32,000 nucleotides of DNA from Gemmatimonadota bacterium (GCA_022823225.1 JAJDXM010000083.1:16064-48063), one strand, 5' to 3'. Shown: positions 573 through 28,025, counted from the stretch's first letter. Numbers and translations are program-made. The notes: generated from the letters alone by a model not told the origin.

Positions 573-1130
573 ATGGAACAGCAGGAATCGCCGCGGAAGA
601 TTCGATCGGGGCTCAAGGGGATCGCACGCGCCGTCCCCGCTGTCGCGTTGTGTGCCTGCGCGACCGCCCCGGCGGGGGAACCGGAAAGTGGTCGGGAACC
701 GATCACCATTCACGTCGACAACAAGACCAGCCGGGTGGTCACCGTGGAACGCATCGTGGCCATGCAGGGCAGCAGGGGCAGCACCGCCTTCGGAGAAGCC
801 AGGAGACAGGGGCAGCGGCCCATCACGCAGCGCGTGGGTCTGGTAAACGGAGAATCGAGAAGGACGCTGACCGTTCCCTGGCACCCGTCCCGGCTGGCCC
901 ACGAGCTCCTGTGGCTCGAAGGCGTGGTGCGCGTCGCGACCGACTCCGAGACGCTCGGCCCGGGCCAGAATCGCATGACCTACCTGGTCGAGGAGTGCCG
1001 GGGCGCGAGGATGAACGCCTGCGTGGACACCCACGCACTCCACCTGCCGCCGGGCGCGGAAGTGGAACTGGTGATCGACACGCGCCACGAGGCAAGGATG
1101 TACTACGAAGTTCCGGCGAGAGGCCCCTGA
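573..1130 (+). CDS. Small exported lipoprotein-like protein, unknown family (paralog A of the 8415-8882 gene)
   Basis: ATG at 573 is preceded by gggggaga. The N-terminus MEQQESPRKIRSGL aligns with MESQGKIRTGL of paralog B, which supports this start over the GTG at 534. Signal peptide with lipobox-like L-C-A-C. Conserved blocks EPITIxVDN.T.RVVTVER.VA, RVGLV.GES..TLT.PWHPSR.AH.LLW and VEEC...C..T..LHLPPGAEV.LVIDTR.E..MYY.VP. Confidence 0.75.
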   Translation: MEQQESPRKIRSGLKGIARAVPAVALCACATAPAGEPESGREPITIHVDNKTSRVVTVERIVAMQGSRGSTAFGEARRQGQRPITQRVGLVNGESRRTLTVPWHPSRLAHELLWLEGVVRVATDSETLGPGQNRMTYLVEECRGARMNACVDTHALHLPPGAEVELVIDTRHEARMYYEVPARGP

Positions 1131-1152
1131 CTGGCAGCCTCATCCACGACTG

Positions 1153-3579
1153 CTACCGGGTCCGCAGCGCCGCGACCGGATCGATCCGCGTAGCCAGCAG
1201 GGCCGGAATCGCCACCGCCAGAGTCCCTACGCCGATCAGCAGCAGGGCGGCAATGGCGAAGCTCAACGGGTCGTAGGGACTGACCTCGAAGAGCGCCAGG
1301 CGGAGCGACCGCGAAATCACCAGTCCCAGGCCGGTACCCAGCACCACCCCGCATCCCATGGGTGCGAGACCCTGGCGCAGAATCAGCCGCAGGATTTCCG
1401 CGCGTCCCGCTCCCAGGATTATCCGCACGCCCAGTTCCGTCCGCTGCTGGCGCACCGAGAGGAAGACGACCACGCTCAGCCCCACCGATGCCAGGAGCAG
1501 CGCGGTCCCGCCCTGCGCCACGAAGAGGGTCCCGAAGATCCTGTAGAAGAGCGTCTCCAGAGCGAGCAGATCCGACATGGCCCGAGGGTCATGAATCGGT
1601 GTGTTGGCGTTGGCGGAGGTGACGGCCGCGCGCACAGCCGAGGTCGGAGCGAGAGGATCGGCGGGACCGGCAGCCACGACGTACACGGAGAGTGCCTCGC
1701 CCTGTGAGAGTGGTGTGTAGACACCCTCGGGCCCGGAGCCGGCAGCGACCACACCGCCCATGAACAGGTCGGGTACGACCCCCACAACGGTTCGCCAGGG
1801 TGCGGCGCTACCGGTGCTGGCCACGCGAATCCGTCTTCCGACCGCGTCGCCGGCGAGGTGCGTGGAGGCGAAGCTCCGGTTCACAAGAGCCACCGGCGTG
1901 GAACCGGCGGCATCGGACGCGCCGAAATCCCTTCCCTCCAGGATTCCGACCCGAAACGCGGAAAAATAGCCCGGGGAAACCTGCGCCCAATGGGCCATCG
2001 CGTCGCCCGTGGGGGCCATCGCGTCGCCCGCCTCGCCGATCGCGACGTCGACCCTGGGGGCCCCCAGCGCTGGAAGCGAAGAGCCCAGCGCGGCAAACTC
2101 CAGGGTGGGAACCGCCTCGATCCGCTCACGCACCGTGCCGAGAAAGTGCCGTGGGTCTTCGCCGGCGGGAAGGTCGGCCGGGGCGACCGTGAGGCGCGCG
2201 GTGAACACGCTCTCATGATCGAAGCCGTAGTCGAACCGTTTCAGCGTCGCCACGCTCCGTGTCATGACGCTCGCGGCGACCAGTAGTCCCATGGCCATGG
2301 CAAGCTGACCCGCCACCATCCAGCGGCCAAACCTCCCGATCCGCAGCCGCGCCCCGGACCCGTCCCTGCCGGCCGGACCGTAGCGGTGTCCTGCCGCCTT
2401 CAGCGCCGGTGGGATACCCGAGATCAGAACGGTGGCCCCCGTGATCGCGACGATGAAAAGGAAGACCAAGCGGTCGAACTCGAAGGCGACCCAGAACGGC
2501 AGATCGGCGTCGGCGGTGGCCGCTGCGAAGAGCCGGATGCCCGTCCAGGCGATTCCGGTACCGAGCGTCGCGCCGAGCACCGCGAGCAATGTCGCCTCCA
2601 ACAGCAGGCGGAAGCCGATCTGGCTGCGTCCGGCGCCCAATGCGCTTCTGGTCCCCGTTTCGCGCGCCCGGGCAGCCACCCGCAACACCAGCAGGTTGGC
2701 CGCGTTGGTGCACGCGATCAGTAGCACCAGCGACGCGACCGGGAGCATCGCCCGGAACAGCGGCGCTGCGCCGTAAACGATCGCCTCCCGGACGAAGGGC
2801 TCGACCACGGGCGCACCGTCCGGGCTCGTTTCCGGGTAGGTCGCCCGCAGCCGGGTCACAATGCCCGCGAGTTCAGCCGCCGCGTCGTCCGGCGCAGCGC
2901 CGGCACGAAGTCTTCCGAAAACGCGGAGCGGAGCCCCGGTGCCGCGTTCCGTCCCGGCGGCGTTTTCCGGGAGCGGCAGCCAGATGTCCTGCAGGCGCGG
3001 GAAACGGATCCCTTCCGGAATGACACCGAGAACCTCGGCGGGTTCCCCGTTCACCACCACGGTATGGCCCACCGCCTCGCCGGAGCCTCGGAACAGCTCC
3101 TCCCAGGCGCGATGCGACAACAGGACCGTCGGAGCCGCCTCCGGATCGCTGTCAGCTTCCCGGAACAACCGGCCGATCTCGGGCTCCAGGCGCAGCGCCG
3201 CCAAGGCGTTGGCGGTCAGCGAGGCACTGCTGTACCGAACCGGTCCCGCGGGCCCCCGGACGTTGACCGACCCCTCGCGATAGGCCGCGAGTTCCTCGAA
3301 GCTCTGCTGAGCGGCGCGCCAATCGAGATAGTCGTGAATGGTCGGCTCCGCGCCCGGGATGCCGGGGGACGGTGCGGCGAGCGCCACCCGCACGATCCGA
3401 TCGCCGTCTTCGACCGGGAGGTCCCTGTTCAGCACCGCATGCGCGATGCTGAACATGATGGCCGTGCATCCGATGCCCATCGCCAGCGCGGCGACCGTGG
3501 TCGTCGACAGGCCCGGATGCCTGGCGAGCATCCGGACGGCATCTCGCAACCCTCCCACGAACCCCAACTCCACCTCCAC
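1153..3579 (-). CDS. ADOP-family (duplicated orphan permease) MacB/FtsX-like ABC permease with no fused or adjacent cognate ATPase
   Basis: 808 aa. N-terminus ...LRDAVRMLARHPGLSTTTVAALAMGIGCTAIMFS is the standard ADOP/MacB TM1 signature. It has a large periplasmic domain, an FtsX-like 4-TM bundle, then a second periplasmic domain and a second FtsX bundle ending ...ATRIDPVAALRTR. The start may be GTG 3579 or GTG 3573. Confidence 0.85.
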   Translation of the reverse strand: MEVELGFVGGLRDAVRMLARHPGLSTTTVAALAMGIGCTAIMFSIAHAVLNRDLPVEDGDRIVRVALAAPSPGIPGAEPTIHDYLDWRAAQQSFEELAAYREGSVNVRGPAGPVRYSSASLTANALAALRLEPEIGRLFREADSDPEAAPTVLLSHRAWEELFRGSGEAVGHTVVVNGEPAEVLGVIPEGIRFPRLQDIWLPLPENAAGTERGTGAPLRVFGRLRAGAAPDDAAAELAGIVTRLRATYPETSPDGAPVVEPFVREAIVYGAAPLFRAMLPVASLVLLIACTNAANLLVLRVAARARETGTRSALGAGRSQIGFRLLLEATLLAVLGATLGTGIAWTGIRLFAAATADADLPFWVAFEFDRLVFLFIVAITGATVLISGIPPALKAAGHRYGPAGRDGSGARLRIGRFGRWMVAGQLAMAMGLLVAASVMTRSVATLKRFDYGFDHESVFTARLTVAPADLPAGEDPRHFLGTVRERIEAVPTLEFAALGSSLPALGAPRVDVAIGEAGDAMAPTGDAMAHWAQVSPGYFSAFRVGILEGRDFGASDAAGSTPVALVNRSFASTHLAGDAVGRRIRVASTGSAAPWRTVVGVVPDLFMGGVVAAGSGPEGVYTPLSQGEALSVYVVAAGPADPLAPTSAVRAAVTSANANTPIHDPRAMSDLLALETLFYRIFGTLFVAQGGTALLLASVGLSVVVFLSVRQQRTELGVRIILGAGRAEILRLILRQGLAPMGCGVVLGTGLGLVISRSLRLALFEVSPYDPLSFAIAALLLIGVGTLAVAIPALLATRIDPVAALRTR

Positions 3580-3619
3580 GCCTTCAAGTCAGCTTCCAGC
3601 TCCCTGGCTGGCAGTCCGG

Positions 3620-5539
3620 CTACCGCGGAATAATATAGTGCACCACGTTGCCGTTACGGTCCACGACCGCAAGAGGGGCTTGCAGGACTTCGACCGCTGT
3701 CCCGGGCAGGCCGGCAGGCGCCGGCAGTGTGAATTCGTCGGCGACGCCGAGATCGACATCCTCGTATCCCAGATCGATCATCGACGCGAGCGTCACGATA
3801 CTGAGCGGATTGGGCACCTCGCCGTTGATGAACGGCGTCATGAGTTCGGTCACGAAAACCAGTTCGTTCCAGTGGCCGTTCCACACTCCGGGGCCGCCGA
3901 CACCCTGAACGGGCACGAGCTTGCTCGACGTGTATCTTTCGCCGCCGATCCGGGCGAAAGCGGCGACCGCGGAATCGCCCGTGAAGTGCGGCTGGCCGGT
4001 GCGTCCAACGCGCGAGGAGTCCTGGATCAGACCGAGCCGCCCCCACAGCACCCCGAATCCCAGCACGTGGGCCATCTCGTGGACAATCGTGCCTTCGAGA
4101 TGGCCGATGCTGTCCAGCCCCTCCGCATCCGCGAGGTCGATCCGCAGCGTCCCGGCTGTCGGCAGGCTGGAATCCTGACGGATCAGACAGGGCCCCGCCT
4201 CGGCGAGGGTGCGGCCGCGGCCATCGATTTCTTCAACGCTTGCGTAGATCACAAGGTCGTTGATGATGCGGTCGCCGTCGGTTTCCAGCTTGATGTTGCC
4301 ACGGGACAGACAATCCTGCAGCAGGGGTTCCCGCACCGTGCTCCACGGGAGATTGCCGCCGATCGCCGCTTCCCACAGCTGCCTGGCGTTCTCGAAGGCC
4401 GCGCGGTGCGATTCCCGCAGTTCGTCCGGATTGGCGAAGACGATCTCGATGTCATAGACGGGGGGCGTGGCGTGGGCGGTGAAGGTTGCCGCGGCCAGAG
4501 TGTCGGTTCCCTCGAGCACTGCGGCGGTCAGCGTATAGTCGATATTCGGCTCGGTTCCGAGCACCCACTTGTCCACACCGGCGAAACCGAGCGTGTCGGT
4601 TACGGCCCGGGACGGGATCACGGCGCTCTCCCGACCCGCGACGAAAGAAACGGTGTCGCCGGCGACGATGTTTCCGTACGGATCCAATACCTGCACCCTG
4701 GGCTGCACCGGGACCGGAAATCTGACCTCGGACTCCTGGCCGTCTCCCTGGACCAGGACGACCTGCGCGGCGGGACCTGCGACTGCACGGGCCTCGAAAC
4801 GCACCGGGTTGCCCGTGATCCCGCTTCCCTCGACCGTGGCCTCCAGGTTGTAGGTGCCCGGGATGGTCCCCAGTGTCCACTGGCCCGAGCTCGCGCGGCC
4901 GGTGGCATCGGTGACCGAATCGGCGCCGGCGACCTGCGCGTCCCGTTCGGTTGCGAAAGCGACCCGAATGCCGGCCAGCGGCGATCCGTCCGCAGCAGTC
5001 ACGAGTATCTCCGGCGCCGCAGGGACCGGGTTGGCCACCCGTGCCATTTGGCCGGCCCCCGCGATGGCGACGACCTCGGCCGGAATCCCGATTGCGGTGG
5101 CGGTGAGGGTCAGCGGCTCCAGACCGGCCACCGTCGCGCGGAGCGCCTGCGGTCCGGCGGCTCCCAGCGTCCAGGCGCCCGGCGACGCGATCCCGTCGCT
5201 GCCGGTTCGCGCCACGCTGGCCTCGATCGTTCCGCCCCCGGCGGTGACCGCGAAATCGACCCGCACGTCGGCGAGCGCCGCTCCCGCGCGACCGGTCACC
5301 CGCACCTGGACGGGGTTGGCGACAGGCGTTCCCGTGGTGGCGCTCTGGCCGTCACCGGCCTCGATGGCCAGCGCGGTGGGAACGTCCGGCTCCGGTTCGG
5401 GTGGCTCGGGCGGTGTGACCGTGGCGTCGCCGCCGCAGGCCGAGGCCTGAAGGCAGGCGGTCACGATGAAAGCTGCCGCCGCCTCGCGGACGCCTGTGCC
5501 ACGGGCTGCTCTGCGGTGTTCGTCAGGTTGCGGCCTCAT
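3620..5539 (-). CDS. Lipoprotein with three Ig-like (Big_1/invasin-type) repeats fused to a leishmanolysin-like (peptidase M8) metalloprotease domain
   Basis: Signal with lipobox IVTAC. Three ~95-aa repeats (residues ~55-358, nt ~4466-5377), each starting (A/V)..(G)(D/A)GQ and ending ...L.A(T/A)V. Zinc motif VHEMAHVLGFG (HEMAH at nt 4081-4067), and a downstream GHWNE...TELMT segment matching the third-His/Met-turn region of M8 enzymes. Confidence 0.8.
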   Translation of the reverse strand: MRPQPDEHRRAARGTGVREAAAAFIVTACLQASACGGDATVTPPEPPEPEPDVPTALAIEAGDGQSATTGTPVANPVQVRVTGRAGAALADVRVDFAVTAGGGTIEASVARTGSDGIASPGAWTLGAAGPQALRATVAGLEPLTLTATAIGIPAEVVAIAGAGQMARVANPVPAAPEILVTAADGSPLAGIRVAFATERDAQVAGADSVTDATGRASSGQWTLGTIPGTYNLEATVEGSGITGNPVRFEARAVAGPAAQVVLVQGDGQESEVRFPVPVQPRVQVLDPYGNIVAGDTVSFVAGRESAVIPSRAVTDTLGFAGVDKWVLGTEPNIDYTLTAAVLEGTDTLAAATFTAHATPPVYDIEIVFANPDELRESHRAAFENARQLWEAAIGGNLPWSTVREPLLQDCLSRGNIKLETDGDRIINDLVIYASVEEIDGRGRTLAEAGPCLIRQDSSLPTAGTLRIDLADAEGLDSIGHLEGTIVHEMAHVLGFGVLWGRLGLIQDSSRVGRTGQPHFTGDSAVAAFARIGGERYTSSKLVPVQGVGGPGVWNGHWNELVFVTELMTPFINGEVPNPLSIVTLASMIDLGYEDVDLGVADEFTLPAPAGLPGTAVEVLQAPLAVVDRNGNVVHYIIPR

Positions 5540-5684
5540 GGTGGATCTCTAATCGCGCGCTTGCACGAGGGCAAGTTGTCGGACCGGGCGCCGCCGGACG
5601 CATCCCGGCCCGCGATTGGCGCGGCAGCCTCCCATCACATTAGCTTGGCGAACGCTCAGTACCCCAGAACCCGGGAAGGAAACC

Positions 5685-8213
5685 ATGCGCAACATCACCC
5701 CACTTCTTCTCCTTCTGCTTGCCGGCGTCCTCGCCCTGCCGGCGTCGGACCCGCTCGCCGCGGCGTCCGCCTCCCCGTTCCCCCTCCTGCAGGAGGAGGA
5801 GGAGCAGGACACCACCGAGGCCGAAGAAAAGGAGGAGGAAGAACCGGACACCACCACCAAGTACACCGACGTGATCACCGAGGACGCGATCACCACCGAG
5901 GGCCTCTTCAAGACCCACATGATCGAGGACGAGCTCTTCTACGAGATCCCGCTGGACATGCTGGACCGCGAGATGCTCCTGCTCACCCGCATCGCCCGCA
6001 CGCCGGACGGCGCGGGTTACGGTGGGTCGAAGGTCAACACCTCGACGGTCAGATGGCAGAAGAACGACGAGCGCATCTTCCTGAGACTGGTCAGCTACTC
6101 GAACATCGCGGACGACACGACCGCGATTGCGGGCGCGGTTCAGAATTCGAACTTCGAGCCGATCCTGCAGACGTTCGACATCGAGGTCATGTCCGAGGAC
6201 TCCATGGCGGTCGTCGTGGAGGTCACCGACATGTTCACCAGCGATTTCGCGCTCCTTGGGATCAGCAGGTTCCAGCGCAGCAACTACGGGGTGCGCCGCC
6301 TGGACGGCGACCGCACCTACATCGTGCGCGCCAACGCCTATCCGCGGAATGTGGAGGTGCGCCGCGTCGTGACCTACGACGCCACCCAGGCGCCCTCCAA
6401 CGCGGCCGGCAACACGATGTCGATGGAGATGCACCACTCGATGCTGCTCCTGCCGGACGATCCCATGGAGCCACGCCTCTGCGATGAGCGCGTGGGGTTC
6501 TTCAGCACAACCAAAACCGACTTCAGCCTGGACACGCAGCGCGCCGAGACGCGGTGCTTCATCACCCGCTGGCGCCTCGAACCGAGTGATCCGGAGGCGT
6601 ACGCGCGCGGCGAGCTCGTCGATCCGGTCGAGCCGATCGTCTACTACATCGATCCGGCGACCCCGCCCAAGTGGGTCCCCTATCTCATCCAGGGGGTGAA
6701 CGACTGGCAGGTCGCCTTCGAGGCGGCCGGCTTCAGCAACGCGATCGTGGGCCGGGAGGCGCCGAAGGACGATCCGGACTGGAGCCCGGAGGACGCGCGC
6801 TATTCGGTGATCCGCTACCTGGCGTCCGACGTACAGAACGCTTCGGGGCCGCACGTGCACGACCCGCGCACCGGCCAGATCCTCGAGAGCGACATCCAGT
6901 GGTACCACAACGTGATGAACCTGCTGCGCAACTGGTTCTTCGTGCAGACCGCCGCCGTCAACGAGGAAGCGCGCGGGGTCGAGTTCGACGACGAGGTGAT
7001 GGGCGAGCTCATTCGCTTCGTCTCGGCACACGAGGTGGGTCACACGATCGGGCTGCAGCACAACTTCCAGGCGCACTCGGCCTATCCGGTGGAGCGTCTC
7101 CGCACCCGCTTCGTCTGCGAGAACGGAGTGTCGTCCTCGATCATGGACTACGCGCGCTTCAACTACGTGGCGCAGCCGGGCGACGACACCTGCGTGTACC
7201 CGGTCGTGGGTCCGTACGACAAGTTCGCCATCGAGTGGGGCTACCGGCACTTGCCGGGCACCGACCGCGACTCCGAGATGGAGCCGCTGCGCGCGATGGT
7301 GGTCGACAAGCAGAGAGACGCGATGTACCGCTTCTCCAGCCCCACCGGCGCCGATCCGACCGTGCAGACCGAGGCCATCGGCGACGACGCGATGCGCGCC
7401 TCCGACTACGGCATCGAGAACCTGAAGCGCATCACCGACCGGCTGCTCGACTGGACCCGCGAGGACGGCGAGGACTACTCGAACCTCGAGGAGCTCTACA
7501 ACAATGTCGTGTCGCAGTGGTCGCGCTACACCGGACACGTCGTGACCAACATCGGGGGCGTGGCGCAGATCCGGAAGCGGCAGGGCCAGAGCGGCGTTCC
7601 GTTCGAGATGGTTCCCAAGGGGGACCAGGAGCGGGCGATGGACTACCTCGACCGCCAGGTCTTCTCGACGCCCACCTGGATGCTGGAAAGCGATATCCTG
7701 CACCGCTTCCAGGGCACGGGCACCGTGGACCAGGTTGCGTCCCGCCAGTCGAGCGCGCTCAACCAGGTGCTGAACGTCACCCGGATGAAGCGTCTCGTGG
7801 AACAGGAGGCGTTCCACGGCAATCGGGCCTACACGCTCGGCGAAATGCTCGACGACCTGCGTGAGGCCGTCTGGCGCGAGGCCATGAACGGCCGCGCCAC
7901 CGACGCCTACCGGCGCAACCTGCAGCGTGCCTACCTGGAGCGCATGAAGGACCTGATGATGGACGATGCCGCTCAGGCGTCGGACGTGGCGCCGTTCGCC
8001 CGCGGACAGCTGGTGACGCTGATGGAAGAGCTGAAATCCGCATCCATGAACAACCGGCACGAAGCGACCAGGCTGCACTTCGTCGATGCGGTGATCCGCA
8101 TCGAGACGATGCTGGACCCGGCCAACAACGTGGCGCCGGCCGGTGGCGGCGGGCCCCCGACCATAGTCTTCCCCTTCCCGGGCTCGAAGGTGCCGCCGGA
8201 TTCCGGCCGATGA
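5685..8213 (+). CDS. Secreted zinc-dependent metalloprotease of the DUF5117/DUF4953 (met-zincin) family
   Basis: ATG 5685 is preceded by ggaagga. Signal peptide MRNITPLLLLLLAGVLALPA. Acidic low-complexity linker QEEEEQDTTEAEEKEEEEPDTTT (nt 5790-5859). Catalytic motif HEVGHTIGLQHNF (HEVGH at nt 7029-7043), characteristic of this family. 842 aa. Confidence 0.85.
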   Translation: MRNITPLLLLLLAGVLALPASDPLAAASASPFPLLQEEEEQDTTEAEEKEEEEPDTTTKYTDVITEDAITTEGLFKTHMIEDELFYEIPLDMLDREMLLLTRIARTPDGAGYGGSKVNTSTVRWQKNDERIFLRLVSYSNIADDTTAIAGAVQNSNFEPILQTFDIEVMSEDSMAVVVEVTDMFTSDFALLGISRFQRSNYGVRRLDGDRTYIVRANAYPRNVEVRRVVTYDATQAPSNAAGNTMSMEMHHSMLLLPDDPMEPRLCDERVGFFSTTKTDFSLDTQRAETRCFITRWRLEPSDPEAYARGELVDPVEPIVYYIDPATPPKWVPYLIQGVNDWQVAFEAAGFSNAIVGREAPKDDPDWSPEDARYSVIRYLASDVQNASGPHVHDPRTGQILESDIQWYHNVMNLLRNWFFVQTAAVNEEARGVEFDDEVMGELIRFVSAHEVGHTIGLQHNFQAHSAYPVERLRTRFVCENGVSSSIMDYARFNYVAQPGDDTCVYPVVGPYDKFAIEWGYRHLPGTDRDSEMEPLRAMVVDKQRDAMYRFSSPTGADPTVQTEAIGDDAMRASDYGIENLKRITDRLLDWTREDGEDYSNLEELYNNVVSQWSRYTGHVVTNIGGVAQIRKRQGQSGVPFEMVPKGDQERAMDYLDRQVFSTPTWMLESDILHRFQGTGTVDQVASRQSSALNQVLNVTRMKRLVEQEAFHGNRAYTLGEMLDDLREAVWREAMNGRATDAYRRNLQRAYLERMKDLMMDDAAQASDVAPFARGQLVTLMEELKSASMNNRHEATRLHFVDAVIRIETMLDPANNVAPAGGGGPPTIVFPFPGSKVPPDSGR

Positions 8214-8264
8214 ATCGCGACGGGTAGGGCGGTCCGGTCACCAGGGGCCGGGCTGGCTCCGGCA

Positions 8265-8307
8265 GCGGCCCCGCGGCGGAAGGATTCGCCGCGGGGCCGC
8301 CGTTTTG
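8265..8307 (+). terminator. Rho-independent terminator downstream of the zinc metalloprotease gene
   Basis: A perfect 14-bp GC stem, gcggccccgcggcg (8265-8278) pairing with cgccgcggggccgc (8287-8300). The loop is gaaggatt, which could extend by 2 more pairs. It is followed by cgTTTTg (T-run 8303-8306). Confidence 0.7.
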
Positions 8308-8414
8308 CTTGACGGTTGCTGGCGCTGGGCCGCATTGTGCATGGAGAGGAGCCCACGCCAATCTGAAACCGACGCCGTACCCATACACTTCCAGACGCGG
8401 AAGGAAGGCTGAAG

Positions 8415-8882
8415 ATGGAATCGCAGGGGAAGATCCGAACGGGGCTCACGGCATTTGCCCTCGCCGCTCTGCCGCTCGCGCACGGCGCGTGCGCATCGTC
8501 TCCGGGGGGAGAGGGGGGTGGCAACGAGCCGATCACGATTCAGGTCGACAACATGACGAACCGGGTGGTCACCGTGGAGCGGGTCGTGGCCGCGGGTGCG
8601 GCCACCCAGCCCGTGACTGTGCGCGTCGGCCTGGTGCGCGGCGAGTCGCAGCAGACGCTGACGATTCCGTGGCATCCGTCCCGGATGGCTCACCAGCTCC
8701 TTTGGTTCGACGGACTGAACAGCCCCAACTACCGCGTCGAGGAATGCACGGGCCAGGGCACGACCGACTGCGCGGAAACGCGGGTGCTCCACCTGCCGCC
8801 CGGCGCCGAGGTGTCGCTGGTGATCGACACGCGCCTCGAGGTCACGATGTACTACCAGGTGCCCTCGGAAAGCGGCTACTAG
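8415..8882 (+). CDS. Small exported lipoprotein-like protein, unknown family (paralog B of the 573-1130 gene)
   Basis: ATG 8415 is preceded by ggaaggaagg. Signal peptide ...ALAALPLAHGAC. It has the same three conserved blocks and the same Cys pair as paralog A. The stop TAG (8880-8882) overlaps the stop of the convergent permease gene. Confidence 0.8.
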   Translation: MESQGKIRTGLTAFALAALPLAHGACASSPGGEGGGNEPITIQVDNMTNRVVTVERVVAAGAATQPVTVRVGLVRGESQQTLTIPWHPSRMAHQLLWFDGLNSPNYRVEECTGQGTTDCAETRVLHLPPGAEVSLVIDTRLEVTMYYQVPSESGY

Positions 8883-9688
8883 CAGTCCTGTGACTCCGTG
8901 TCAGGGCTCCTCGCCAGGCGGCGGAGTCCGAGCAGGGCGATCGCGGTCCAGAGCGCGAAGTGGTAGGCGACCATGCCGGTCGCGCCCCAGTCCCACGCGC
9001 CCGGACCCAGCCCGCGGATGAAGTCGCGGAATACCCCGGCCGGGAAGATCACGAACTGAAAGACCGCGCCGACCGCATCGATGTCGGCGAGCTCGCCCAG
9101 GACGCCGGCCAGTCCGCCCATCAGCCAGGAAAGCGCGTAGTACCCGAGCCCGAGCCAGGCGGCATGCCGGATGCCGAACGTCGCAAAGGCAAAGCTGATC
9201 GCACAGGCTGCGGCGCCCAGAAGGCAGACATGCACCATGGCGGCCAGGCCTGACATGAAGGGGGTGTCGCCCGTGAAGAAGCGCGCCGCCGAAGTCAGCC
9301 CCAGGATCAACATGAGGACGAGCGTAGCGAGCTGTACCCCACCATAGCGACTCAAATACGTGCCTCCCTCGTCTTCGCCTGTTGCGAAAAGCCTCTGCGG
9401 CATGGAAAAACCGAGGATCACGACCCCGAGAGTGAACAGGAACGCCAGGATACCGACGATGAACACCAATCCGGCACCGCGCGCCATCTGCCCCAGCTGC
9501 TCCGTCGGAATGTCCTCGGGGTCCGCTTCGGAGACCTGTTCTGCGGCACCCTGTACCTCTTCGAGCACTGCCGTGAGGTCGAAGGCGTAGACGCATACCG
9601 CCAGCAGCGCCCCGGCGAGAAAGACGCCCAGGGCGAGCTTCCATCTCCGTTGGATTGCCTCTTTGAGAGCTGTTTTCACGATCGACAT
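8879..9688 (-). CDS. ABC-2-type transporter permease, divergent copy (6 predicted TM)
   Basis: I chose the internal ATG at 9688 (MSIVKTALKE...), preceded by aaggag, rather than the ORF start at 9799. It is paralogous to the upstream permease: shared N-terminal RRRW+TM1, an acidic loop, and the C-terminal W.WGATGMV.YHFALWT..ALLGLRRL.R.P. Confidence 0.7.
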   Translation of the reverse strand: MSIVKTALKEAIQRRWKLALGVFLAGALLAVCVYAFDLTAVLEEVQGAAEQVSEADPEDIPTEQLGQMARGAGLVFIVGILAFLFTLGVVILGFSMPQRLFATGEDEGGTYLSRYGGVQLATLVLMLILGLTSAARFFTGDTPFMSGLAAMVHVCLLGAAACAISFAFATFGIRHAAWLGLGYYALSWLMGGLAGVLGELADIDAVGAVFQFVIFPAGVFRDFIRGLGPGAWDWGATGMVAYHFALWTAIALLGLRRLARSPDTESQDC

Positions 9689-9738
9689 TTGAGCTCCTTG
9701 TTCGGGTGGCGAAAGTGGGGCGGCTACGTGGACATCGT

Positions 9739-10593
9739 TCAGAGCATGACGGGCCGCCGCTCCAGACGGCGGAGTCCAAGCAGGGCGGCCCCGGTCCAAA
9801 GGGCAAAATGATACACGACCATTCCAGTGGCTCCCCAGTTCCAGTCCGTTCCGGATGCGAAGCCCGCGACGAAGTCATCGATCGGATTGTCCGGGAAGAT
9901 CAGGAACGGCAGGAGGTCCTTCACCCAGTCCGGCACCGGAGCGCCAAAACCGAAAGCGGGGTCGACGATGCTCCATGCAATGCTCGACGCGAAGACGTAG
10001 GCGATCGCGAAGAAGGCCGCGCGACGCAATCCCAGCGCAGTTATGGCGTAGCTCACCGCGCAGGCGAGCGCGCCAGTCAACAGAACCTGGGCGAACCGGC
10101 CCGGATCCGTCATGACCAACTGGTTCGGCACACCCGATGCAGGGTCGTTGCCCGGAAGCACCGCAACGATGACAACAAGCGCAAAGAGCACGTGTGCGGC
10201 GAGATTCACGCCCTGGATGCCCAGGTAGCGGTGAAGATAAAAGCGCGTCAGCGGCATCGGGTGCTGGGCCCAGAGCATGACCGCGCCGCTGCGCCGCTCG
10301 TTTGCGACGATTCCCCCCGGCAGGAGCACGGCGACCATCAGCGTGCCGACCTGGAAGAGGAAGCCAAGGACGCCCATCAGGAACAGGACTCCGGCGCCCC
10401 GCATCATTCCGCCTATCTGCTCCTCGCCCGGGGGCGCTTCCGACTCCGCGATCCCCTGGATCTCGTCCAGGATCCCCTGCACGTCATACGCCTTGCTCAC
10501 CACCACCAGCGCGACGCCGCAGAGGAACACGACCAGCAGAACCCTCCACCTGCGGCGCAGAACGTGGAGCAGCGTCTCCCTGGCGATGGTCAT
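9739..10593 (-). CDS. ABC-2-type transporter permease
   Basis: 284 aa, multi-TM. It contains the ABC-2 style segment IVANERRSGAVMLWAQHPMPLTRFYLHRYLG (E-R-x-x-G...P..R pattern). Its start ATG overlaps the ATPase stop (ATGA at 10590-10593), which implies translational coupling. Confidence 0.75.
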   Translation of the reverse strand: MTIARETLLHVLRRRWRVLLVVFLCGVALVVVSKAYDVQGILDEIQGIAESEAPPGEEQIGGMMRGAGVLFLMGVLGFLFQVGTLMVAVLLPGGIVANERRSGAVMLWAQHPMPLTRFYLHRYLGIQGVNLAAHVLFALVVIVAVLPGNDPASGVPNQLVMTDPGRFAQVLLTGALACAVSYAITALGLRRAAFFAIAYVFASSIAWSIVDPAFGFGAPVPDWVKDLLPFLIFPDNPIDDFVAGFASGTDWNWGATGMVVYHFALWTGAALLGLRRLERRPVML

Positions 10594-11303
10594 GAAACCG
10601 CTCCTTCCAGTCCGAGGAATTCCCCCTCCAGGAAGTCGCGCGTGAACCCGCCTTCGGGCGGCTGGACGACCCTGCCCTCCCCCTGGTCGATGAGGAGCAC
10701 GCTGTCGCTCATCATCGCCATCTCGCCGAGGTCGTGGCTGGCCACCAGGACGGTCATGCTGCCGCGAAGGGTCTCGATCCGCCTGCGCAGCCGGATCCGC
10801 TGCCCGGGATCGAGTCCCGATTCCGGCTCGTCCAGGATCAGCAGCTTCGTGGGGCGCATGAGCGCAACTGCGAGCGCCAGCCGGCGCCTCATCCCCTTCG
10901 AGAGCCCCTTGACGGGGACCTGGGTGTCGTAGTCGACGCCGGCCAGTTGCCGTGCGTTCTCGACATCGGCGTCGGGACCGGCGGCGGCCGCGGCCAGCGC
11001 CATGACCCCGTCACAGCTCCAGCCGTCCGGCATGGCGGTGTCATCCGCGAGGTAGCCGAGCCCGCGCCGGCGCCGATAGTCGGAAGGGGAGAGGCCGTCG
11101 ACGGAGGCGTCGCCCCCGAAGGGGTCCAGGATGCCGAGCAGCGTACGGAACAGCGTGGTCTTGCCGGAGCCGTTGGGGCCTACGATCGCGAGCACCTCGC
11201 CGGGCACCACATCGAGCGTGAGTCCCGTGAGGATCGGGCTACCCCTGCGGTATCCGATCGAGAGGTCGCGTAGCCGGACCTCGGCCGGTTGGGCGTCGTT
11301 CAT
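10590..11303 (-). CDS. ABC transporter ATP-binding protein
   Basis: Walker A GPNGSGKTT, signature LSKGMRRRL, Walker B LLILDEPESGLD, H-loop ASHD. Start taken at MNDAQPAEVRLRDLSIGY (ATG 11303) rather than the ORF start at 11348. Confidence 0.9.
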   Translation of the reverse strand: MNDAQPAEVRLRDLSIGYRRGSPILTGLTLDVVPGEVLAIVGPNGSGKTTLFRTLLGILDPFGGDASVDGLSPSDYRRRRGLGYLADDTAMPDGWSCDGVMALAAAAAGPDADVENARQLAGVDYDTQVPVKGLSKGMRRRLALAVALMRPTKLLILDEPESGLDPGQRIRLRRRIETLRGSMTVLVASHDLGEMAMMSDSVLLIDQGEGRVVQPPEGGFTRDFLEGEFLGLEGAVS

Positions 11304-11395
11304 GGGTGATTGCCTGGAGAGGTGGGGGTGAAGGGGTTGGTGCCTCATACGGTTCGGAAGCCGGAGAACGTCATGGCGGCGGACAATATACGTCG

Positions 11396-11559
11396 GTGGT
11401 GGCGCGGCCGCTGGCCGAACTGCGGACTCTGAACGGCCCGACGGCGGACATCTGCGCCATTATCTCCGAGATCGAGGCCGGGCGCTCGTGAGGGTCTTCG
11501 TCGACTCGAACATCCCGTTGCATGTGGCCGGCGCGGAGCATCCGAACCGCGGGCCCGCC
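11396..11559 (+). pseudogene. Degraded type II TA remnant: an antitoxin C-terminal tail overlapping by GTGA the first ~24 codons of a PIN (VapC) toxin
   Basis: VRVFVDSNIPLHVAGAEHPNR (from GTG 11488) matches the N-terminus MIFLDTSVFIHHVGRGHPLR of the intact PIN gene at 31611. After about 24 codons the frame becomes S/R/P-rich junk antisense to the 11595-12197 gene. The upstream frame ends ...AELRTLNGPTADICAIISEIEAGRS with a stop overlapping the toxin start, which is typical TA geometry. No plausible antitoxin N-terminus remains. Confidence 0.45.
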
Positions 11560-11594
11560 ACCCGGTCTCCGGAGAGCGCCGGCGGGCGGGCGGG

Positions 11595-12197
11595 CTACCG
11601 ATTCACGCGGACGTTGGCGGACATCCTGACCCAGAGCGCGGTCGGCCCGTCCTCGTTCTCCGCGGGCGAGAAGCTGGCCAGGGGGCCGATCCCCAGCAGA
11701 GCTTCGTCCAGGGCTTCGTACCCCGAACTCCGGTCGATCCGCTGCTGCTGCACGACGCCGGTCTCGTCCACCAGGAAGCGGGCGGTCGCTCCCGGGCCTG
11801 CCAGGCCTGGGGTGCCGGTCTCTTCGCCCCCGTACGGGATGTTCCCGAACAGCGCTCCCAGCACATCACTCCCGTTCAGCAGCTCGGGAGGCCGCGCCAG
11901 GGCGAGTTCCACATCGACCGGGCGTGGGCCGATCAACAGGACGCACAACTCTGGATGATCGGGGGCCGACTCCGAGGCTGCGGAAGGACCGACCAAGGCC
12001 CGCGCGGGGGAGCCCGTGTCCAGCAATTCCTGGCAGGCGCGAACGAAATCGTCGGGCCCGTCGAACATTCGAAGCCCGGTCACGGTGACACCCAAGCCCA
12101 CCGTGACGAGGACGAGGGTATGCAACAGCCAATTGCTCCTTCGAGATTCCTCGATTCCTTCCTGTTCCTCGGCGAAGTGACCTGACGGCGAAGGCAT
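11595..12197 (-). CDS. Membrane-anchored protein with a TonB C-terminal-like domain
   Basis: N-terminal TM WLLHTLVLVTVGLGVTVTGL. The C-terminal segment PYGGEETGTPGLAGPGATARFLVDETGVVQQQRIDRSSGYEALDEALLGIGPLASFSPAENEDGP fits the TonB_C pattern (G.a.v.f.vd..G.v....i..SsG...LD.aal......F.PA...G.P). There is no obvious proline-rich spacer. Confidence 0.55.
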   Translation of the reverse strand: MPSPSGHFAEEQEGIEESRRSNWLLHTLVLVTVGLGVTVTGLRMFDGPDDFVRACQELLDTGSPARALVGPSAASESAPDHPELCVLLIGPRPVDVELALARPPELLNGSDVLGALFGNIPYGGEETGTPGLAGPGATARFLVDETGVVQQQRIDRSSGYEALDEALLGIGPLASFSPAENEDGPTALWVRMSANVRVNR

Positions 12198-17422: not shown

Positions 17423-20400
17423 CTACCCTCCCGGCACGGCGACCACCTCAAGCGCTTCGGGGCGCAGTCCTTCCGGATAGACCCGCGCCAGCAGCTCCGG
17501 CACGCGGCCGGTGACCATCTCGTTGACGCGCTCGATCACGCCCGGCAGCCTCTCCCACGACTGCTCGATTCGCCAGATCTGGTCGGCCGTCGCAGGCGAG
17601 GTGGAGCGCTCGATCTGCCCGTACGCGTTGCTGCCGCCGCCTGCGTCGCCCAGGTCGCCCTGCAGCTCCTGGAGCGCTTCGCGCACTGCCTCGATCTCTT
17701 CGGTGAGATCCTCCGGCGCCTCCTCGGCGTCGTTCACCCGCTGCTGCGCGCGCGTCACCTGCTGCATCATCTGGCCGATGCGCTGCGCGGCCTGGTTGCG
17801 AGGGCCGGAGAGCCGGTAGGATTTCAGCATGACCTCGTGGCGGGCCATCAGATCGGCCCGCGAGATCGACACGCGGGGGTCGAGGCGCACCTCCACGGGC
17901 TGCTCCATCGTCTCGCCGCTCACGGTGAGCGCCACCGTGTAGGTGCCCGGCAGCACGCGCGGGCCCGGGCCCATCGGCTCGCCGTCCGGGCCGTCCATCA
18001 CCAGCCGCAGGTCCCAGATCACCTGGTTGAGGCCCTCGTCGGTGCCGGCGTTGAGTTCCCGCACGACCATGTCTCCGTCCCGGATCTCGAGCGTAACGCT
18101 GTCGGCGTCGGCACCGAGGTGGTAGCGGATCCAGGCCCCGCCGGGCGGGTTGGGCGCCGCGTAGATCCCCGGCGTCCAGCCCTGGGGGGTGTACATGTTG
18201 TACGAGGTGGCGCGCCGCACCGGGTAGAGGTGGGCGGCGGACGCCATCACCGCGGCGCTCAGTTCCTGCAGCGGCGCGATGTCGTCCATGATCCAGATTC
18301 CGAGCCCGTGCGTCCCGATCACAAGGTCGTTTTCGCGCGGGTGAATGACGATGTCGTCGACCGGCACGGTGGGCATCCCGTTCCTCAGCGGGTGCCAGTT
18401 CGCGCCCCCGTCGATCGACACGTGCACGCCCACCTCGCTCCCCGCAAAGAGCAGGTTGTGCGCGGTGGGATGCTGCGCCAGCGCGTTCATCGACGTCATG
18501 GGCAGCCCGTTCGTGACCTGCTCCCAGCTCTCGCCGAAGTCGCGGCTGACGAAGATGTAGGGGTTGAAGTCGTCGCTCCGGTGGCCGTCGAAGACCGCGT
18601 ACGCCTCCCCCGGCGCGGCGCGCGACGCCACGATGCGCGTCACATACGTGTGGGGCGGCAGCCCGCGCACATTCCCCGTCACGTCCATCCAGTTCTTGCC
18701 CCCGTCGCGGGTCACGTGCACCCGCCCGTCGTCGCTGCCGGTGTACAGCACCGCCGGGTCATGCGGCGACTCCGCGAGCGCGGTCAGGTTGCCGTAGTTG
18801 GACTGCCCGTCGTTGCGGGACATCTGCGGTTCGCTCCCCGGCACGCCCATCAGCTCCAGGGTGTCGCGGTCGATCGCGTACGTCAGGTCGCCGCTGATCT
18901 CCTCCCAGCGCTGCCCCAGGTCCGGGGAACGGAAGAGGATGTTCGCGCCGACGTACACGACCCGGTCGTCGTGCGAAGAAAGCAGGATCGGCGTGTCCCA
19001 GTTCCAGCGCAGCGAACGGTCGTCGTCCTCCTCGGTCGGGCGGGCGATGGGGCGGATCGACTTGCGCTCGTTGGCCGCGAGGTTCACCCGCGCGATGTTG
19101 CCGCCCTGCGACTCGGCGAACATGATGTCGGGGTTGGTGGGGTGCATGACGGTAAAGAAGCCGTCGCCGCCGCCCACGTTGTACCAGTCGCGCGTGCGGA
19201 CCCCCTGGTTGGACAGCGTCTGCGAGGGCGCGCACCAGGAGCCGTTGTCCTGCAGCCCGCCGCAGACGTGGTAGGGATCGCGCATGTCCACCCCGATCTC
19301 GTAGAACTGCGCGAGCGGGAGGTTGCGCAGCTGGTACCAGTTGTCCGAGCGGTCCCAGCTCACCGATACGCCGCCGTCGCCGGCCAGGATCAGGTGCTCC
19401 GAGTTGGCCGGATTGATCCAGAGCGCGTGGTGGTCGAGATGCACGGTTGTGGCCGCGTCCGGGGTGAAGTTTCGGCCCCCGTCGGACGACCGGTAGAGGG
19501 AGGCGCCGCCCAGGTAGATCCGCTCGGGGTCGTTGGGGTCGACGCGGATCTGGCTGTAGTACATGGGGCGGTTGTTGGTGGTCGACAGCTGGTCCCAGGT
19601 CTCGCCGCGGTCGGTGGAGCGGTAGACGCCGGTCTGCCTGTCGTCGTTGCCGCCGCCGAAGCCCCCGAACCCCTGGCCCGGCCCGCGCGCGTCCGCCTCG
19701 ACAAGCGCGAAGATCATGTCGGTGTCGCCGCGGTAGATGTCGAGACCGATCCGGCCCATGTCCCCATCCGGCAGCCCGCCTCCCAGCTCCGTCCAGGTGT
19801 CTCCCCCGTCGGTGGTCCGGTAGATGCCGCTGCCCGGACCGCCGCCGTTGAAGCCCCAGGCGCGCCGCTGCCGCTGGTACATGGCCGCGAAGAGGGTCTT
19901 CGGATCGCCCGGGTCCATCGCCAGGTCGATGGCGCCCGTGTGCTCGTCGACGAAGAGGACCAGTTCCCAGGTCTTGCCCCCGTCGGTCGTGCGATAGACG
20001 CCCCGCTCGGGGTTCGCGCCCCAGAGGTGGCCGACCGCGGCGACATAGGCGACGTCGGGGTCGGTCGGATGCACCCGGATGCGGCCGATGTGGTGGGTGT
20101 TCTCCAGTCCGACATGCGTCCAGTTGCGCCCGGCGTCGGTGGAGCGGTAGATGCCGTTGCCCCACGGTGAGCTCTGACGGTTGTTGGGCTCGCCGGTCCC
20201 GACCCAGACCACGTTGGGATTCGAGGGCGCCACGGTCACGGCTCCGACCGAAGCGGTGGCCTCGTCCCTGAACACGTGCTCGAAGGTGATGCCGGCGTTC
20301 TCGGTCTTCCACAGCCCGCCGGTCGCAACGCCCACATAGAAGGTGCTCGGGTCCGACTCCACGACGGCCAGTTCCGCCACCCGTCCCCCCATGATGGTGG

Positions 20401-20560
20401 GGCCGATGGTGCGGAAGCGAAGGGCGGAGGTGGCGCGCGCGAACGCGTCGTCGGCGTTCTGGGTCGTGCCCGTGGCCGGGGCCAGGAGCCCGGAGCCGAT
20501 CAGAGCGGTGGCGATGAGTCCGACGATGACGGATGGGTGGCGGTTTTCGGTGCGGTTCAC
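17423..20560 (-). CDS. Exported VPS10/sortilin-like BNR (Asp-box) repeat beta-propeller protein
   Basis: 1045 aa with a signal peptide. Repeated Asp-box-like motifs: S.D.G.TW variants YRSTDAGRNW, YRTTDGGKTW, YRTTDGGDTW, YRSTDRGETW, YRSSDGGRNF, VTRDGGKNW, VSIDGGANW. The N-terminal RFRTIGPTIMGGRVAELAV is typical of this family. Confidence 0.85.
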   Translation of the reverse strand: MNRTENRHPSVIVGLIATALIGSGLLAPATGTTQNADDAFARATSALRFRTIGPTIMGGRVAELAVVESDPSTFYVGVATGGLWKTENAGITFEHVFRDEATASVGAVTVAPSNPNVVWVGTGEPNNRQSSPWGNGIYRSTDAGRNWTHVGLENTHHIGRIRVHPTDPDVAYVAAVGHLWGANPERGVYRTTDGGKTWELVLFVDEHTGAIDLAMDPGDPKTLFAAMYQRQRRAWGFNGGGPGSGIYRTTDGGDTWTELGGGLPDGDMGRIGLDIYRGDTDMIFALVEADARGPGQGFGGFGGGNDDRQTGVYRSTDRGETWDQLSTTNNRPMYYSQIRVDPNDPERIYLGGASLYRSSDGGRNFTPDAATTVHLDHHALWINPANSEHLILAGDGGVSVSWDRSDNWYQLRNLPLAQFYEIGVDMRDPYHVCGGLQDNGSWCAPSQTLSNQGVRTRDWYNVGGGDGFFTVMHPTNPDIMFAESQGGNIARVNLAANERKSIRPIARPTEEDDDRSLRWNWDTPILLSSHDDRVVYVGANILFRSPDLGQRWEEISGDLTYAIDRDTLELMGVPGSEPQMSRNDGQSNYGNLTALAESPHDPAVLYTGSDDGRVHVTRDGGKNWMDVTGNVRGLPPHTYVTRIVASRAAPGEAYAVFDGHRSDDFNPYIFVSRDFGESWEQVTNGLPMTSMNALAQHPTAHNLLFAGSEVGVHVSIDGGANWHPLRNGMPTVPVDDIVIHPRENDLVIGTHGLGIWIMDDIAPLQELSAAVMASAAHLYPVRRATSYNMYTPQGWTPGIYAAPNPPGGAWIRYHLGADADSVTLEIRDGDMVVRELNAGTDEGLNQVIWDLRLVMDGPDGEPMGPGPRVLPGTYTVALTVSGETMEQPVEVRLDPRVSISRADLMARHEVMLKSYRLSGPRNQAAQRIGQMMQQVTRAQQRVNDAEEAPEDLTEEIEAVREALQELQGDLGDAGGGSNAYGQIERSTSPATADQIWRIEQSWERLPGVIERVNEMVTGRVPELLARVYPEGLRPEALEVVAVPGG

Positions 20561-24022: not shown

Positions 24023-24237
24023 GGTTCCAGATAACCTTGCTCTTCAGGCGCGCGCGGGAAAGAATGGGAGATCGGCACCATCGCCGCGGACAGCCCCGCG
24101 GCCCCCTCCGTACATGAGGACCAGACAGCATGATCAGGCAAACGAATGACACGTCTCCGCACCCCCGCCGGCCCACCCCGGTCGCGCGTCCCCTCCTGGC
24201 AGCCCGTGGACAGGACTCCCGCGGCATTCGAGCGGCG

Positions 24238-27200: not shown

Positions 27201-27300
27201 GTACGCGCTGCTCTTCAACACCTTCATGCACTTCGACGCGCTGTCGGCGGATCCGGAAGCGGTGCTTGCGGAGCAGGAGGGAGGGTCTTCGAGCCGGTAG
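24238..27300 (+). CDS. Large exported peptidase M14 (zinc carboxypeptidase)-like protein
   Basis: Hydrophobic signal ...LFVALALAAIAFALPALATPLAAQQ. M14-type zinc motif AIHSPETGSPE (HSPE at nt 24820-24831) and a later HDHHES region. The long C-terminal extension carries a Gly/Phe-rich low-complexity insert. The start is uncertain: ATG 24238 is the last in-frame start before the signal peptide. Confidence 0.8.
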   Translation: MHPRWTAPPTRPRCGVRFTKCRVLFTSHISRTSLFVALALAAIAFALPALATPLAAQQRLDEEYTALIREFTTEDFFSTPLVDHLPFSETVPTPLDHLGHISGAPDILSYPAEVHSYMRALAAASPRVEVFSMGMSEEGREMILVVVSSEETIAALEANKAALRRLADPRVTTPEEAQEIIGTAKPVYWSAGAIHSPETGSPEMFMELAYRLAVGESEFIRDIRDNLIYMMTPVVEPDGRAKVVDLHMARHKDPDATTPTRPLYWGQYVAHDNNRDNIGLSLALSRAVTNTYLEYRPTVFHDHHESASHLYTSTGRGPYNACLDPIVINEWNRLAYKEVKDMTAYGVPGVYTFDFYDGWGANYMMWVAHMRNSIGRFYETQGAGNASTRIIRSNVQRQWHRPSTPVQQVVWGIRNNVNLQQSAVMIAMHEVATNREEFLHNFYQKSARSVAKAYKEGPAAYVLPAADQRPGQQGRLLKLMEDHAFEVHRLNEDVEVEGETFAEGSYVVRMDQPFSRGADMLLDKQYYNPDDPRPYDDVGWTVGPLFNAKTVRIEDPAILDAEMTLVETATVPGGVEGRRGGVYLVNYNADNTLAQFRFANGDLVIHAAQESFSDGDRDFNAGTFVIREEDNPEADLAMRLDAAATEYGFTAVRTRNEPEVPMHETRVPRIAVMHTWTSTQDEGWLRVGLDEYGIPYNYISVHDVRDNEQLRDSYDVIVMGQTRGNPLSVVRGLQGSEPVPWKATELTPNIGRQASTDDMRGGLGLEGVLNLKSFVEAGGVFVTMASASQLPIHFGLADGVSIRQTPDLWARGGVFATRVTDEASPIGYGYDELGVSFNSAPVFAAGGGGGFGGFGGFFGGGGGGGGRGPGDTTARRTGRGGVGEQDYVQGRARDMGQAGVEAFREAQRAEQEANAGQQGGPAGGGGNANRVRVVMRFASDVNELLISGGLRNGQALTNAPAVVDVTLGDGHIVLFSFNPFWRSHTHGSYALLFNTFMHFDALSADPEAVLAEQEGGSSSR

Positions 27301-27736: not shown

Positions 27737-28023
27737 TCTCGGTCCACCCGGCCATCCGTGGAATCCGGATCCGGCGTATCGTCGGCACCGGCGAGACTGT
27801 CCCAGTGTTCCTCCGGCACCACCGGCCCAACGATATCGCCGACGATGGTGACGGTTCCCTTCAGTTCCGACTGCGGATGGTGGGACTCCGCCTGGCTCGG
27901 CGGCCAGAGTTCGGCGACCGGCCGTCCCCGCTTCAGGATGACGATGCGCTCGCCCGTCTCCCGCACACGGTCGAGAATGGCCAGGCACCGTGCCTTGAAG
28001 TAGGATGCGTTGATGGTTTCCAT
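27733..28023 (-). CDS. Phd/YefM-type antitoxin
   Basis: METINASYFKARCLAILDRVRETGERIVILKRGRPVAELWP is the Phd/YefM N-terminal fold signature. It has an acidic, disordered C-terminus and a 4-nt overlap with the PIN toxin gene. Confidence 0.8.
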   Translation of the reverse strand: METINASYFKARCLAILDRVRETGERIVILKRGRPVAELWPPSQAESHHPQSELKGTVTIVGDIVGPVVPEEHWDSLAGADDTPDPDSTDGRVDRE

Positions 28024-28025
28024 GC

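Follow-up and report, generated by a model that had tools for sequence, protein, structure and literature searches.

Lineage-restricted paralogous proteins with lipoprotein-type signals beside exported metallopeptidase genes in Gemmatimonadota

Introduction

Small lipoprotein inhibitors encoded beside their peptidases are an established arrangement (PMC9890683). The potempins (PotA-E) of Tannerella forsythia are lipoprotein inhibitors of the KLIKK peptidases, and their open reading frames (ORFs) overlap the peptidase gene or lie within 5 bp upstream of it and are co-transcribed with it (PMC9890683). In the present study, we analyzed two paralogous genes, here called copy A and copy B, in a 32,000-nt stretch of DNA (the window) from a Gemmatimonadota bacterium (GCA_022823225.1, JAJDXM010000083.1:16064-48063). 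Their products carry export signals and represent a real, unannotated, and very narrow orphan family from one lineage of Gemmatimonadota. In the window, the two genes enclose those of two metallopeptidases, one M8-like and one of the DUF4953 type, which look active and exported, as judged from their HExxH motifs and signal peptides.

Like the potempins, the proteins of this family are small (about 100-130 residues when mature), all-beta according to structure models, and apparently lipid-anchored. Several paralog-like ORFs lie beside secreted peptidase genes, metzincins included, and the signal peptides are unusually similar between paralogs, here in the basic N-terminal segment (n-region) MESPRKIRxGL of clades A and B. 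However, the two groups share no sequence similarity, and a 9-strand sandwich is predicted here, whereas potempins are 5-strand OB or 8-strand up-and-down barrels; no potempin structure was among the 50 listed Foldseek matches of either model. In addition, A and B are not bicistronic with a peptidase gene, as gaps of 66-341 nt separate A from the M1 or DUF4953 peptidase gene in relatives and a terminator precedes B, and clade C of the family has no peptidase neighbor.

Inh/AprI proteins (MEROPS I38) are serralysin inhibitors, which are soluble periplasmic 8-strand barrels and not lipoproteins. They are similar to the present proteins in being small exported beta proteins with one disulfide (putative in A and B), encoded in a cluster with metzincin and ABC-transporter genes. 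However, no match to the Pfam Inh family was found at E<=10, no Inh/AprI structure was among the 50 listed Foldseek matches, and the ABC genes here are of the ABC-2 or MacB type and not those of a type I secretion system. At best, the family works like potempins or Inh. It is a member of neither, differing from the potempins in fold and operon arrangement and from Inh in profile and fold.

Two other groups were also compared. ASH and PapD-like immunoglobulin (Ig)-type sandwiches are alike in size and all-beta architecture, and strands 1-4 of 13 of the 23 aligned members matched the ASH profile (PF15780) below threshold (best E 1e-4; copy B 12.9 bits against a gathering threshold of 27). No other Pfam match recurred among the members at E<=10. 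However, the C-terminal half of the family, with its Cys hairpin and HLPPGAEV motif, has no counterpart in ASH. A place for the family within the wide Ig-like/PapD-like fold class is possible, but such a membership would carry no functional implication. The second group comprises GldG-type ABC-2 operons with ABC_transp_aux and DUF4340 genes, in which a clade C gene is the terminal gene in three genomes, whereas window copies A and B lie outside such operons. We know of no small lipoprotein component described for GldG-type ABC-2 systems.

Results

Copies A and B are paralogous genes

Both ORFs named in a preliminary description of this DNA were present (Table 1). Their products, which had been called paralogs from three hand-counted blocks of identity, aligned in BLASTP with 90/178 identities (51%, E 5e-50). 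The same alignment returned identical counts for the blocks (18/22, 23/31, and 28/43), and its gaps of 13 and 14 residues corresponded to the two insertions said to be confined to copy A.

A and B are real genes and not shadow ORFs of high-GC DNA, as indicated by third-position GC content (GC3), by the ratio of nonsynonymous to synonymous substitution rates (dN/dS), and by the confident structure models described below. GC3 was 0.82 in A and 0.87 in B, with second-position values (GC2) of about 0.5 in both and a local sequence of 68-70% GC; the long overlapping ORFs in other frames or strands at A and B lacked a gene-like codon-position GC pattern. Orthologs of A and B across genomes gave dN/dS values of 0.24-0.55, so their products are under purifying, relatively relaxed selection, and these gene-wide values gave no sign of positive selection. 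The two genes evolved faster than their neighbors (dN/dS 0.48-0.49 vs 0.19-0.33). Surface or partner-binding proteins are often fast-evolving. The exact sequence of copy A is already in NCBI/ENA, and copy B is also in public databases; named members of the A and B clusters are annotated "hypothetical protein".

The signal peptides end in a lipobox-like motif

Two family alignments, A1 with 23 and A4 with 34 sequences, revealed a common plan consisting of a basic n-region, a hydrophobic stretch, a conserved Cys, a tether, and a conserved domain. The signal Cys (C29 in A and C26 in B) is conserved in all family members in the alignments, with Ala or Gly before it and Ala-Ser/Thr after it. The tether between this Cys and the domain is 10-12 residues long and rich in Gly, Pro, and Glu (Pro and Glu in copy A). 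A strict lipobox of the PROSITE PS51257 type, defined as [LIVMFWSTAG](2)-[LIVMFYSTAGCQ]-[AGS]-C after a basic n-region and a hydrophobic h-region, was matched by 22 of the 37 full-length distinct members. The signal end of copy A, ...AVPAVALCAC, fits this pattern. That of copy B, LAHGAC, departs from it only at position -3 (His), and the ends ALGAC and ASGAC of B orthologs fit. The exported proteins with a signal ending in Cys that had been proposed earlier can therefore be described more precisely as carrying a lipoprotein signal, with a strict lipobox in copy A (ALCAC) and an imperfect one in copy B (AHGAC). Judged by these motifs, both proteins are exported, and their lipidation is very probable.

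The DNA similarity around the start codons of A and B, also noted previously, is real and lies within the coding n-region, which is conserved at the protein level in the orthologs of both. A non-coding upstream element common to A and B was looked for and none was found, the similarity being limited to the coding n-region. In most A and B orthologs, the n-region itself includes an ATG in frame (KIRMGL) with a GGAAGA stretch, a potential ribosome-binding site, ahead of it, and an alternative start at this ATG is possible. Both window copies (573-620 and 8415-8450) have lost this ATG (RSGL and RTGL) and must start at the upstream ATG.

The mature domain is a predicted beta-sandwich of no known family

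The mature domain comprises about 115 residues and was all-beta, with nine strands, in the AlphaFold2 (AF2) models of both copies, consistent with the beta-rich character suggested from the sequence. The copy B model (mfa647b77f44c) had a mean predicted local distance difference test score (pLDDT) of 80, with block means of 82-98, mostly >90, over residues 41-150, and a predicted template modeling score (pTM) of 0.69. The copy A model (mf87a79f5aae0) had a pTM of 0.72, with both A-specific insertions at low pLDDT. In these models, the clade-specific insertions are low-confidence surface loops on a compact beta domain.

The VEEC...C pair (C111/C119 in B numbering) highlighted in the preliminary description is invariant or nearly so in the family alignment. 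The two Cys residues are placed on consecutive strands at the base of a predicted beta-hairpin, with 3-7 residues in the loop between them, and in the most distant relatives the entire hairpin is absent and both Cys residues with it. Owing to this location and the loss of the pair together with the whole hairpin, the pair fits the disulfide suggested earlier, and a Cys111-Cys119 bond would staple the hairpin. Family-wide motifs are VDN, R.G.V.G, PWHPSRLAH, VEEC, and LHLPPGAEV, and the polar residues N46, R56, R70, H93, E109, E110, H126, and R140 are invariant in all clades.

Pfam and NCBIfam scans of both copies gave no match at standard thresholds, a profile search of PDB sequences gave chance-level matches only (E>=0.9), and Foldseek against the PDB with either model gave nothing at E<=1e-3. 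The top Foldseek neighbors were generic beta-sandwiches (2mca, the pVHL beta domain, cytolysin domain 4, and the HGSNAT luminal domain) with TM<=0.43. Sequence profiles and structural neighbors thus agree with the previous failure to recognize the family.

The family is restricted to one lineage

A word-indexed search of 5.8 billion clusters (90% identity) retrieved 21 family clusters, or 36 with a broader profile, and none of the 36 contained an annotated relative. When 1.84 billion representatives (50% identity) were searched exhaustively with HMMER, the profile retrieved only 11 proteins, among them the repeat protein P0029 described below. Among one genome per species for 185,579 species, 11 loci were found in 8 metagenome-assembled genomes (MAGs), all labelled Gemmatimonadetes or Longimicrobiales, and all named family clusters likewise came from Longimicrobiales/Gemmatimonadetes MAGs. 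Gemmatimonadota, named in the preliminary description, is thus the right group. The MAG and sample names (SB0661_bin_2, APA_bin_39, ENGE20, and PANK22) suggest a sponge microbiome origin. No further family copies were detected when the window and loci L001-L025 were scanned with an HMM in all six frames.

A neighbor-joining tree resolved three orthologous clades, A, B, and C, of which A and B are sisters. Clade A proteins are long and have both insertions, clade B proteins are short, and clade C proteins have insertion 2 only. A D-type protein (P0023) is a singleton outside these clades, and the P0030 type is a far more distant pair of tandem lipoproteins (119 and 127 aa; 10001-10772 of locus L023, also in L024 and L025) without the Cys hairpin and without the HLPPGAEV motif. 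The match of the 813-aa protein P0029, weak and in four stretches (E 4e-9), was judged a low-complexity or Cys-hairpin motif resemblance. This protein contains at least six copies of a repeat of about 100 residues with the pattern C..G.G.C.V.P.L.L.PG.

Gene neighborhoods of A and B

The block between A and B spans 7,284 nt and contains genes for an ADOP-family permease, a Big_1 plus M8 peptidase, and a DUF5118/DUF5117/DUF4953 metzincin (Table 1). The start of the last is likely the ATG at 5685, inside an ORF of 5616-8213. To compare neighborhoods, window and reference proteins were mapped on fetched loci by tblastn and combined with gene calls, which gave 15 non-redundant A/B loci. The commonest order was AMP-ligase (+), M8-like (-), A (+), M1 (+) where present, DUF4953 (+), B (+), then, where present, ABC-2-like permease(s) (-) and ATPase (-), and further on an amidohydrolase gene. 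A and the M8-like gene occurred together in 13/15 loci, were both absent in one (L001), and were never found apart; across the 15 loci, A was also always accompanied by the DUF4953 metzincin. In 11/13, A and M8 were arranged head-to-head, with M1 or DUF4953 downstream of A in the same direction. B was present in 12 loci, always directly downstream of DUF4953, and adjoined ABC-2-like genes in 9 of these 12.

The region is heavily rearranged, with M1, ADOP, ABC, DinB, and RHH genes varying in presence among the 15 loci. Despite at least five independent gains or losses of neighbor genes, A has remained within 5 kb of M8 and DUF4953. The order in the window and in L030 is AMP-ligase, A, ADOP (-), M8 (-), DUF4953, while in L029 and L031 it is AMP-ligase, ADOP (-), M8 (-), A, DUF4953, differing from the window only in the position of A. 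Most other loci lack ADOP and have an M1 peptidase gene between A and DUF4953. From the two orders, A appears to have changed sides of the ADOP-M8 pair in a very recent lineage.

The preliminary description had noted that the two paralogs bracket a 7.3-kb block. Our comparison shows a local rearrangement and no conserved unit, since A lies to the left of ADOP solely in the window and L030 and inside the cluster in most relatives. A mobile or recombination-bounded block marked by direct-oriented paralogs was also considered and rejected, because A is inside the cluster in relatives and the genes in between vary independently of one another. In L030, the closest relative of the window, the DUF4953 gene is split into calls of 727 and 122 aa at 9335-11867 and B is absent; this is an 8x long-read contig in which an assembly error and a real deletion are indistinguishable.

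Outside clades A and B the neighbors are different. Clade C genes are the last in an operon of the order PPIase, 138-aa membrane protein, ABC ATPase, ABC-2 permease, ABC_transp_aux (GldG-like), DUF4340-like, C; this order recurs in three genomes, with a 10-nt gap before C in the SB0661_bin_2-type locus. The D-type gene lies between two small ORFs, one of them coding for a lipoprotein. The P0030-type pair is directly downstream of a gene for a 1051-aa Sortilin/BNR protein, which is 35% identical to the product of 17423-20560 in the window. The earlier concern that homologs might have random neighborhoods is therefore answered differently for different parts of the family: close relatives keep the neighbors of clades A and B, and those of clade C, the D type, and the P0030 type are different.

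Table 1. Coordinates of copies A and B, their landmarks, and neighboring features in the window.
Feature	Position	Strand	Evidence and remarks
Copy A (clade A)	573..1130	+	185 aa; signal peptide, tether, predicted beta-sandwich domain with two surface-loop insertions
Copy A, signal Cys29	657-659	+	codon; lipobox ALCAC
Copy A, Cys pair	996-998 and 1020-1022	+	codons
ADOP-family duplicated MacB/FtsX-type permease	1153..3579	-	TIGR03434, 635 bits; Pfam; convergent with A, 22-nt gap
Big_1 + peptidase M8 (leishmanolysin-like)	3620..5539	-	Pfam; HEMAH motif; N-terminal Cys-containing signal
DUF5118/DUF5117/DUF4953 met-zincin	5685..8213	+	Pfam (DUF4953 E 9e-109); HEVGHTIGLQH; Sec signal
Predicted intrinsic-terminator hairpin between DUF4953 and B	8265..8300	+	16-bp stem, 14 G-C, T-run; fold z = -4.5
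Copy B (clade B)	8415..8882	+	155 aa; signal peptide with AHGAC, Gly-rich tether, predicted beta-sandwich domain
Copy B, signal Cys26	8490-8492	+	codon
Copy B, Cys111	8745-8747	+	codon
Copy B, Cys119	8769-8771	+	codon
mem1 + mem2, tandem paralogous polytopic membrane proteins	8879..10593 (mem1 8879-9799, mem2 9739-10593)	-	convergent with B
ABC transporter ATPase	10590..11348	-	Pfam/NCBIfam; one minus-strand unit with mem1/mem2

Discussion

Of the roles considered, we place first, though with low confidence and at less than even chances, that A and B are envelope-anchored partners or inhibitors of the neighboring exported zinc metallopeptidases. This model was placed first because of the small tethered beta domain, the variable loops, the faster evolution, and a place beside metzincins that was kept through rearrangements, for which the potempins and Inh/AprI offer parallels. 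In such a model, A and B would be lineage-restricted lipid-anchored envelope proteins with a lipoprotein signal, a flexible tether, and a beta-sandwich with a disulfide-stapled hairpin. A would pair with the M8-like lipoprotein, and both A and B with the DUF4953 metzincin (and with M1 where present). Their most likely role would be that of self-protective inhibitors or membrane tethers, which keep the peptidase in place or inactive on the cell surface, and paralog specificity would come from the variable loops, namely both insertions and the Cys-Cys loop.

A more far-reaching version is unlikely in our estimate. It holds that A and B found a structurally new family of membrane-anchored metallopeptidase inhibitors, in Gemmatimonadota of putative sponge origin by their MAG set names, with loops tuned to different exported metzincins (M8-like and DUF4953), that they represent a potempin-like system of attack and self-protection with an origin independent of that in Bacteroidota, and that, as clade C would show, the scaffold served at first as a partner of a GldG-type ABC-2 machine.

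If the peptidase-partner model is true, the family would be a further case, without homology to the known ones, in which lipoprotein inhibitors are paired with secreted metzincins, and would give a first functional handle on bacterial M8-like peptidases and the uncharacterized DUF4953 metzincins in a Gemmatimonadota clade that is uncultured. Otherwise, what remains is a clean definition of a small orphan family by three clades, a lipobox, a putative disulfide hairpin, and the HLPPGAEV and PWHPSRLAH motifs, which could seed a Pfam entry. The impact is limited, as the lineage is narrow and no long-standing open question is touched.

Several observations weigh against a partnership with the peptidases, the first of which concern transcription. 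In the window (8265-8345) and in L002, L003, L014, L029, and L032, the spacer between DUF4953 and B contains a perfectly conserved hairpin, GCGGCCCCGCGGCGG...CCGCCGCGGGGCCGC, followed by a T-run. The hairpin and the TTGAC box behind it are conserved in these 6 loci, and a CAyTsTG motif also precedes the clade B genes. B is thus split from DUF4953 by a conserved terminator and, given the terminator and the box, is very probably a transcription unit of its own. (Locus L014 has extra tandem copies of the TTGACA-containing segment in this spacer.) In relatives, an imperfect hairpin of about 70 nt lies immediately 3' of A (5503-5577 in L002 and 5938-6012 in L032, with arms visible in the alignment for L017). 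Its minimum free energy is -50 to -59 kcal/mol for folded stretches of about 100 nt, with z -3.0 in L002 and -5.8 in L032. This hairpin has no T-run, ends right at the start codon of the next gene in L002, and does not occur in the window. It may represent a terminator, a REP-like element, or an element of translational control. Because of the terminator before B, the hairpin after A, and the ADOP gene that converges on window copy A, tight bicistronic coupling of the potempin kind is absent, and each of the two genes appears to form a transcription unit of its own.

Further points against the model come from genomic position and structure. In the window, copy A lies at a distance of 2.5 kb from M8 and of 4.5 kb from DUF4953, and three loci (L017, L026-28, and L030) have DUF4953 without B. 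No peptidase gene is near the clade C genes, the D-type gene, or the P0030-type pair. All A/B loci come from close relatives, with synonymous divergence (dS) of 0.1-1.0, so the conserved gene order may reflect inheritance and not selection, and a single event may account for the loss of both A and M8 in L001. In the Foldseek search of the PDB, the models showed no structural resemblance to solved inhibitors, and polar residues that are invariant in all clades point to a common ligand rather than to paralog-specific targets. Confidence was kept low because of the close relationship of the loci, the unrelated neighbors of clade C and the outliers, the separate transcription units, and the invariant polar residues.

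Many of these observations suit the absence of any functional coupling, which we regard as nearly as likely as the peptidase-partner model, though doubtful in itself. A and B would then be lineage-specific envelope lipoproteins with an unrelated structural or ligand-binding role, and their position would reflect shared ancestry after local duplication. The other neighbors of the members outside A and B (an ABC-2/GldG-like operon, a small-lipoprotein operon, and a Sortilin/BNR gene), the low dS between loci, the apparently separate transcription units, and the movement of A within the cluster in the window and L030 are all consistent with this. However, the gene gains and losses described above have left A within 5 kb of M8 and DUF4953, and A is never without M8 and most commonly lies on the same strand upstream of M1/DUF4953. 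These points speak against an absence of coupling.

A role as accessory lipoproteins of ABC-2-type exporters, with C serving the GldG-like/DUF4340-like transporter, B the mem1/mem2/ATPase system, and A, in the window, the ADOP permease, is improbable for the family as a whole. It fits clade C, whose gene ends an operon of ABC ATPase, ABC-2 permease, ABC_transp_aux, and DUF4340-like genes in three genomes; in addition, B is beside ABC-2-like genes in most of its loci, and A abuts the ADOP gene in the window and L030. For A and B it is contradicted, as both are convergent with the ABC genes and not co-transcribed with them, and A has no exporter neighbor in most genomes. The linkage of B to the ABC genes was likewise rejected, since B persists without them (L029 and L032) and a mem1 or mem2 permease is kept without B (L026-28 and L030).

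A small periplasmic metal- or ligand-binding module, for example one that supplies or buffers zinc for the adjacent metallopeptidases, is quite improbable: H93, H126, E109, E110, E132, D45, and D138 are invariant or nearly so in clades A-D and zinc enzymes are encoded next door, but searches of Pfam, NCBIfam, and PDB sequences gave no match to known metal-binding families (a profile match between the copper chaperone Atx1 and the N-terminal region, with E 0.9, is at chance level), H87 is not invariant, and P0030-type relatives are without most of these residues.

Other features of the window

Beyond B, the mem1 and mem2 products are 37% identical and have weak ABC-2 permease similarity; the pair adjoins the ABC ATPase gene, and most relatives carry only one of the two. 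The start of mem1 is probably mis-called, because the two ORFs as called have 61 nt in common. The rest of the window has ordinary chromosomal content, including genes for an amidohydrolase, an acyl-CoA dehydrogenase, an HpcH aldolase, an epimerase, an NHL propeller, and an alpha/beta hydrolase, and a weak TonB_C match fell below threshold (24.2 bits vs a cut-off of 24.6). It also codes for other exported or hydrolytic proteins, namely a 1045-aa Sortilin/BNR protein on the minus strand at 17423-20560, a 1056-aa protein with an M14 carboxypeptidase domain on the plus strand at 24130-27300, and a PIN-domain protein on the minus strand at 27338-28048. In relatives, the region corresponding to these M14, Sortilin, and PIN genes also contains S58 peptidase and MazEF genes.

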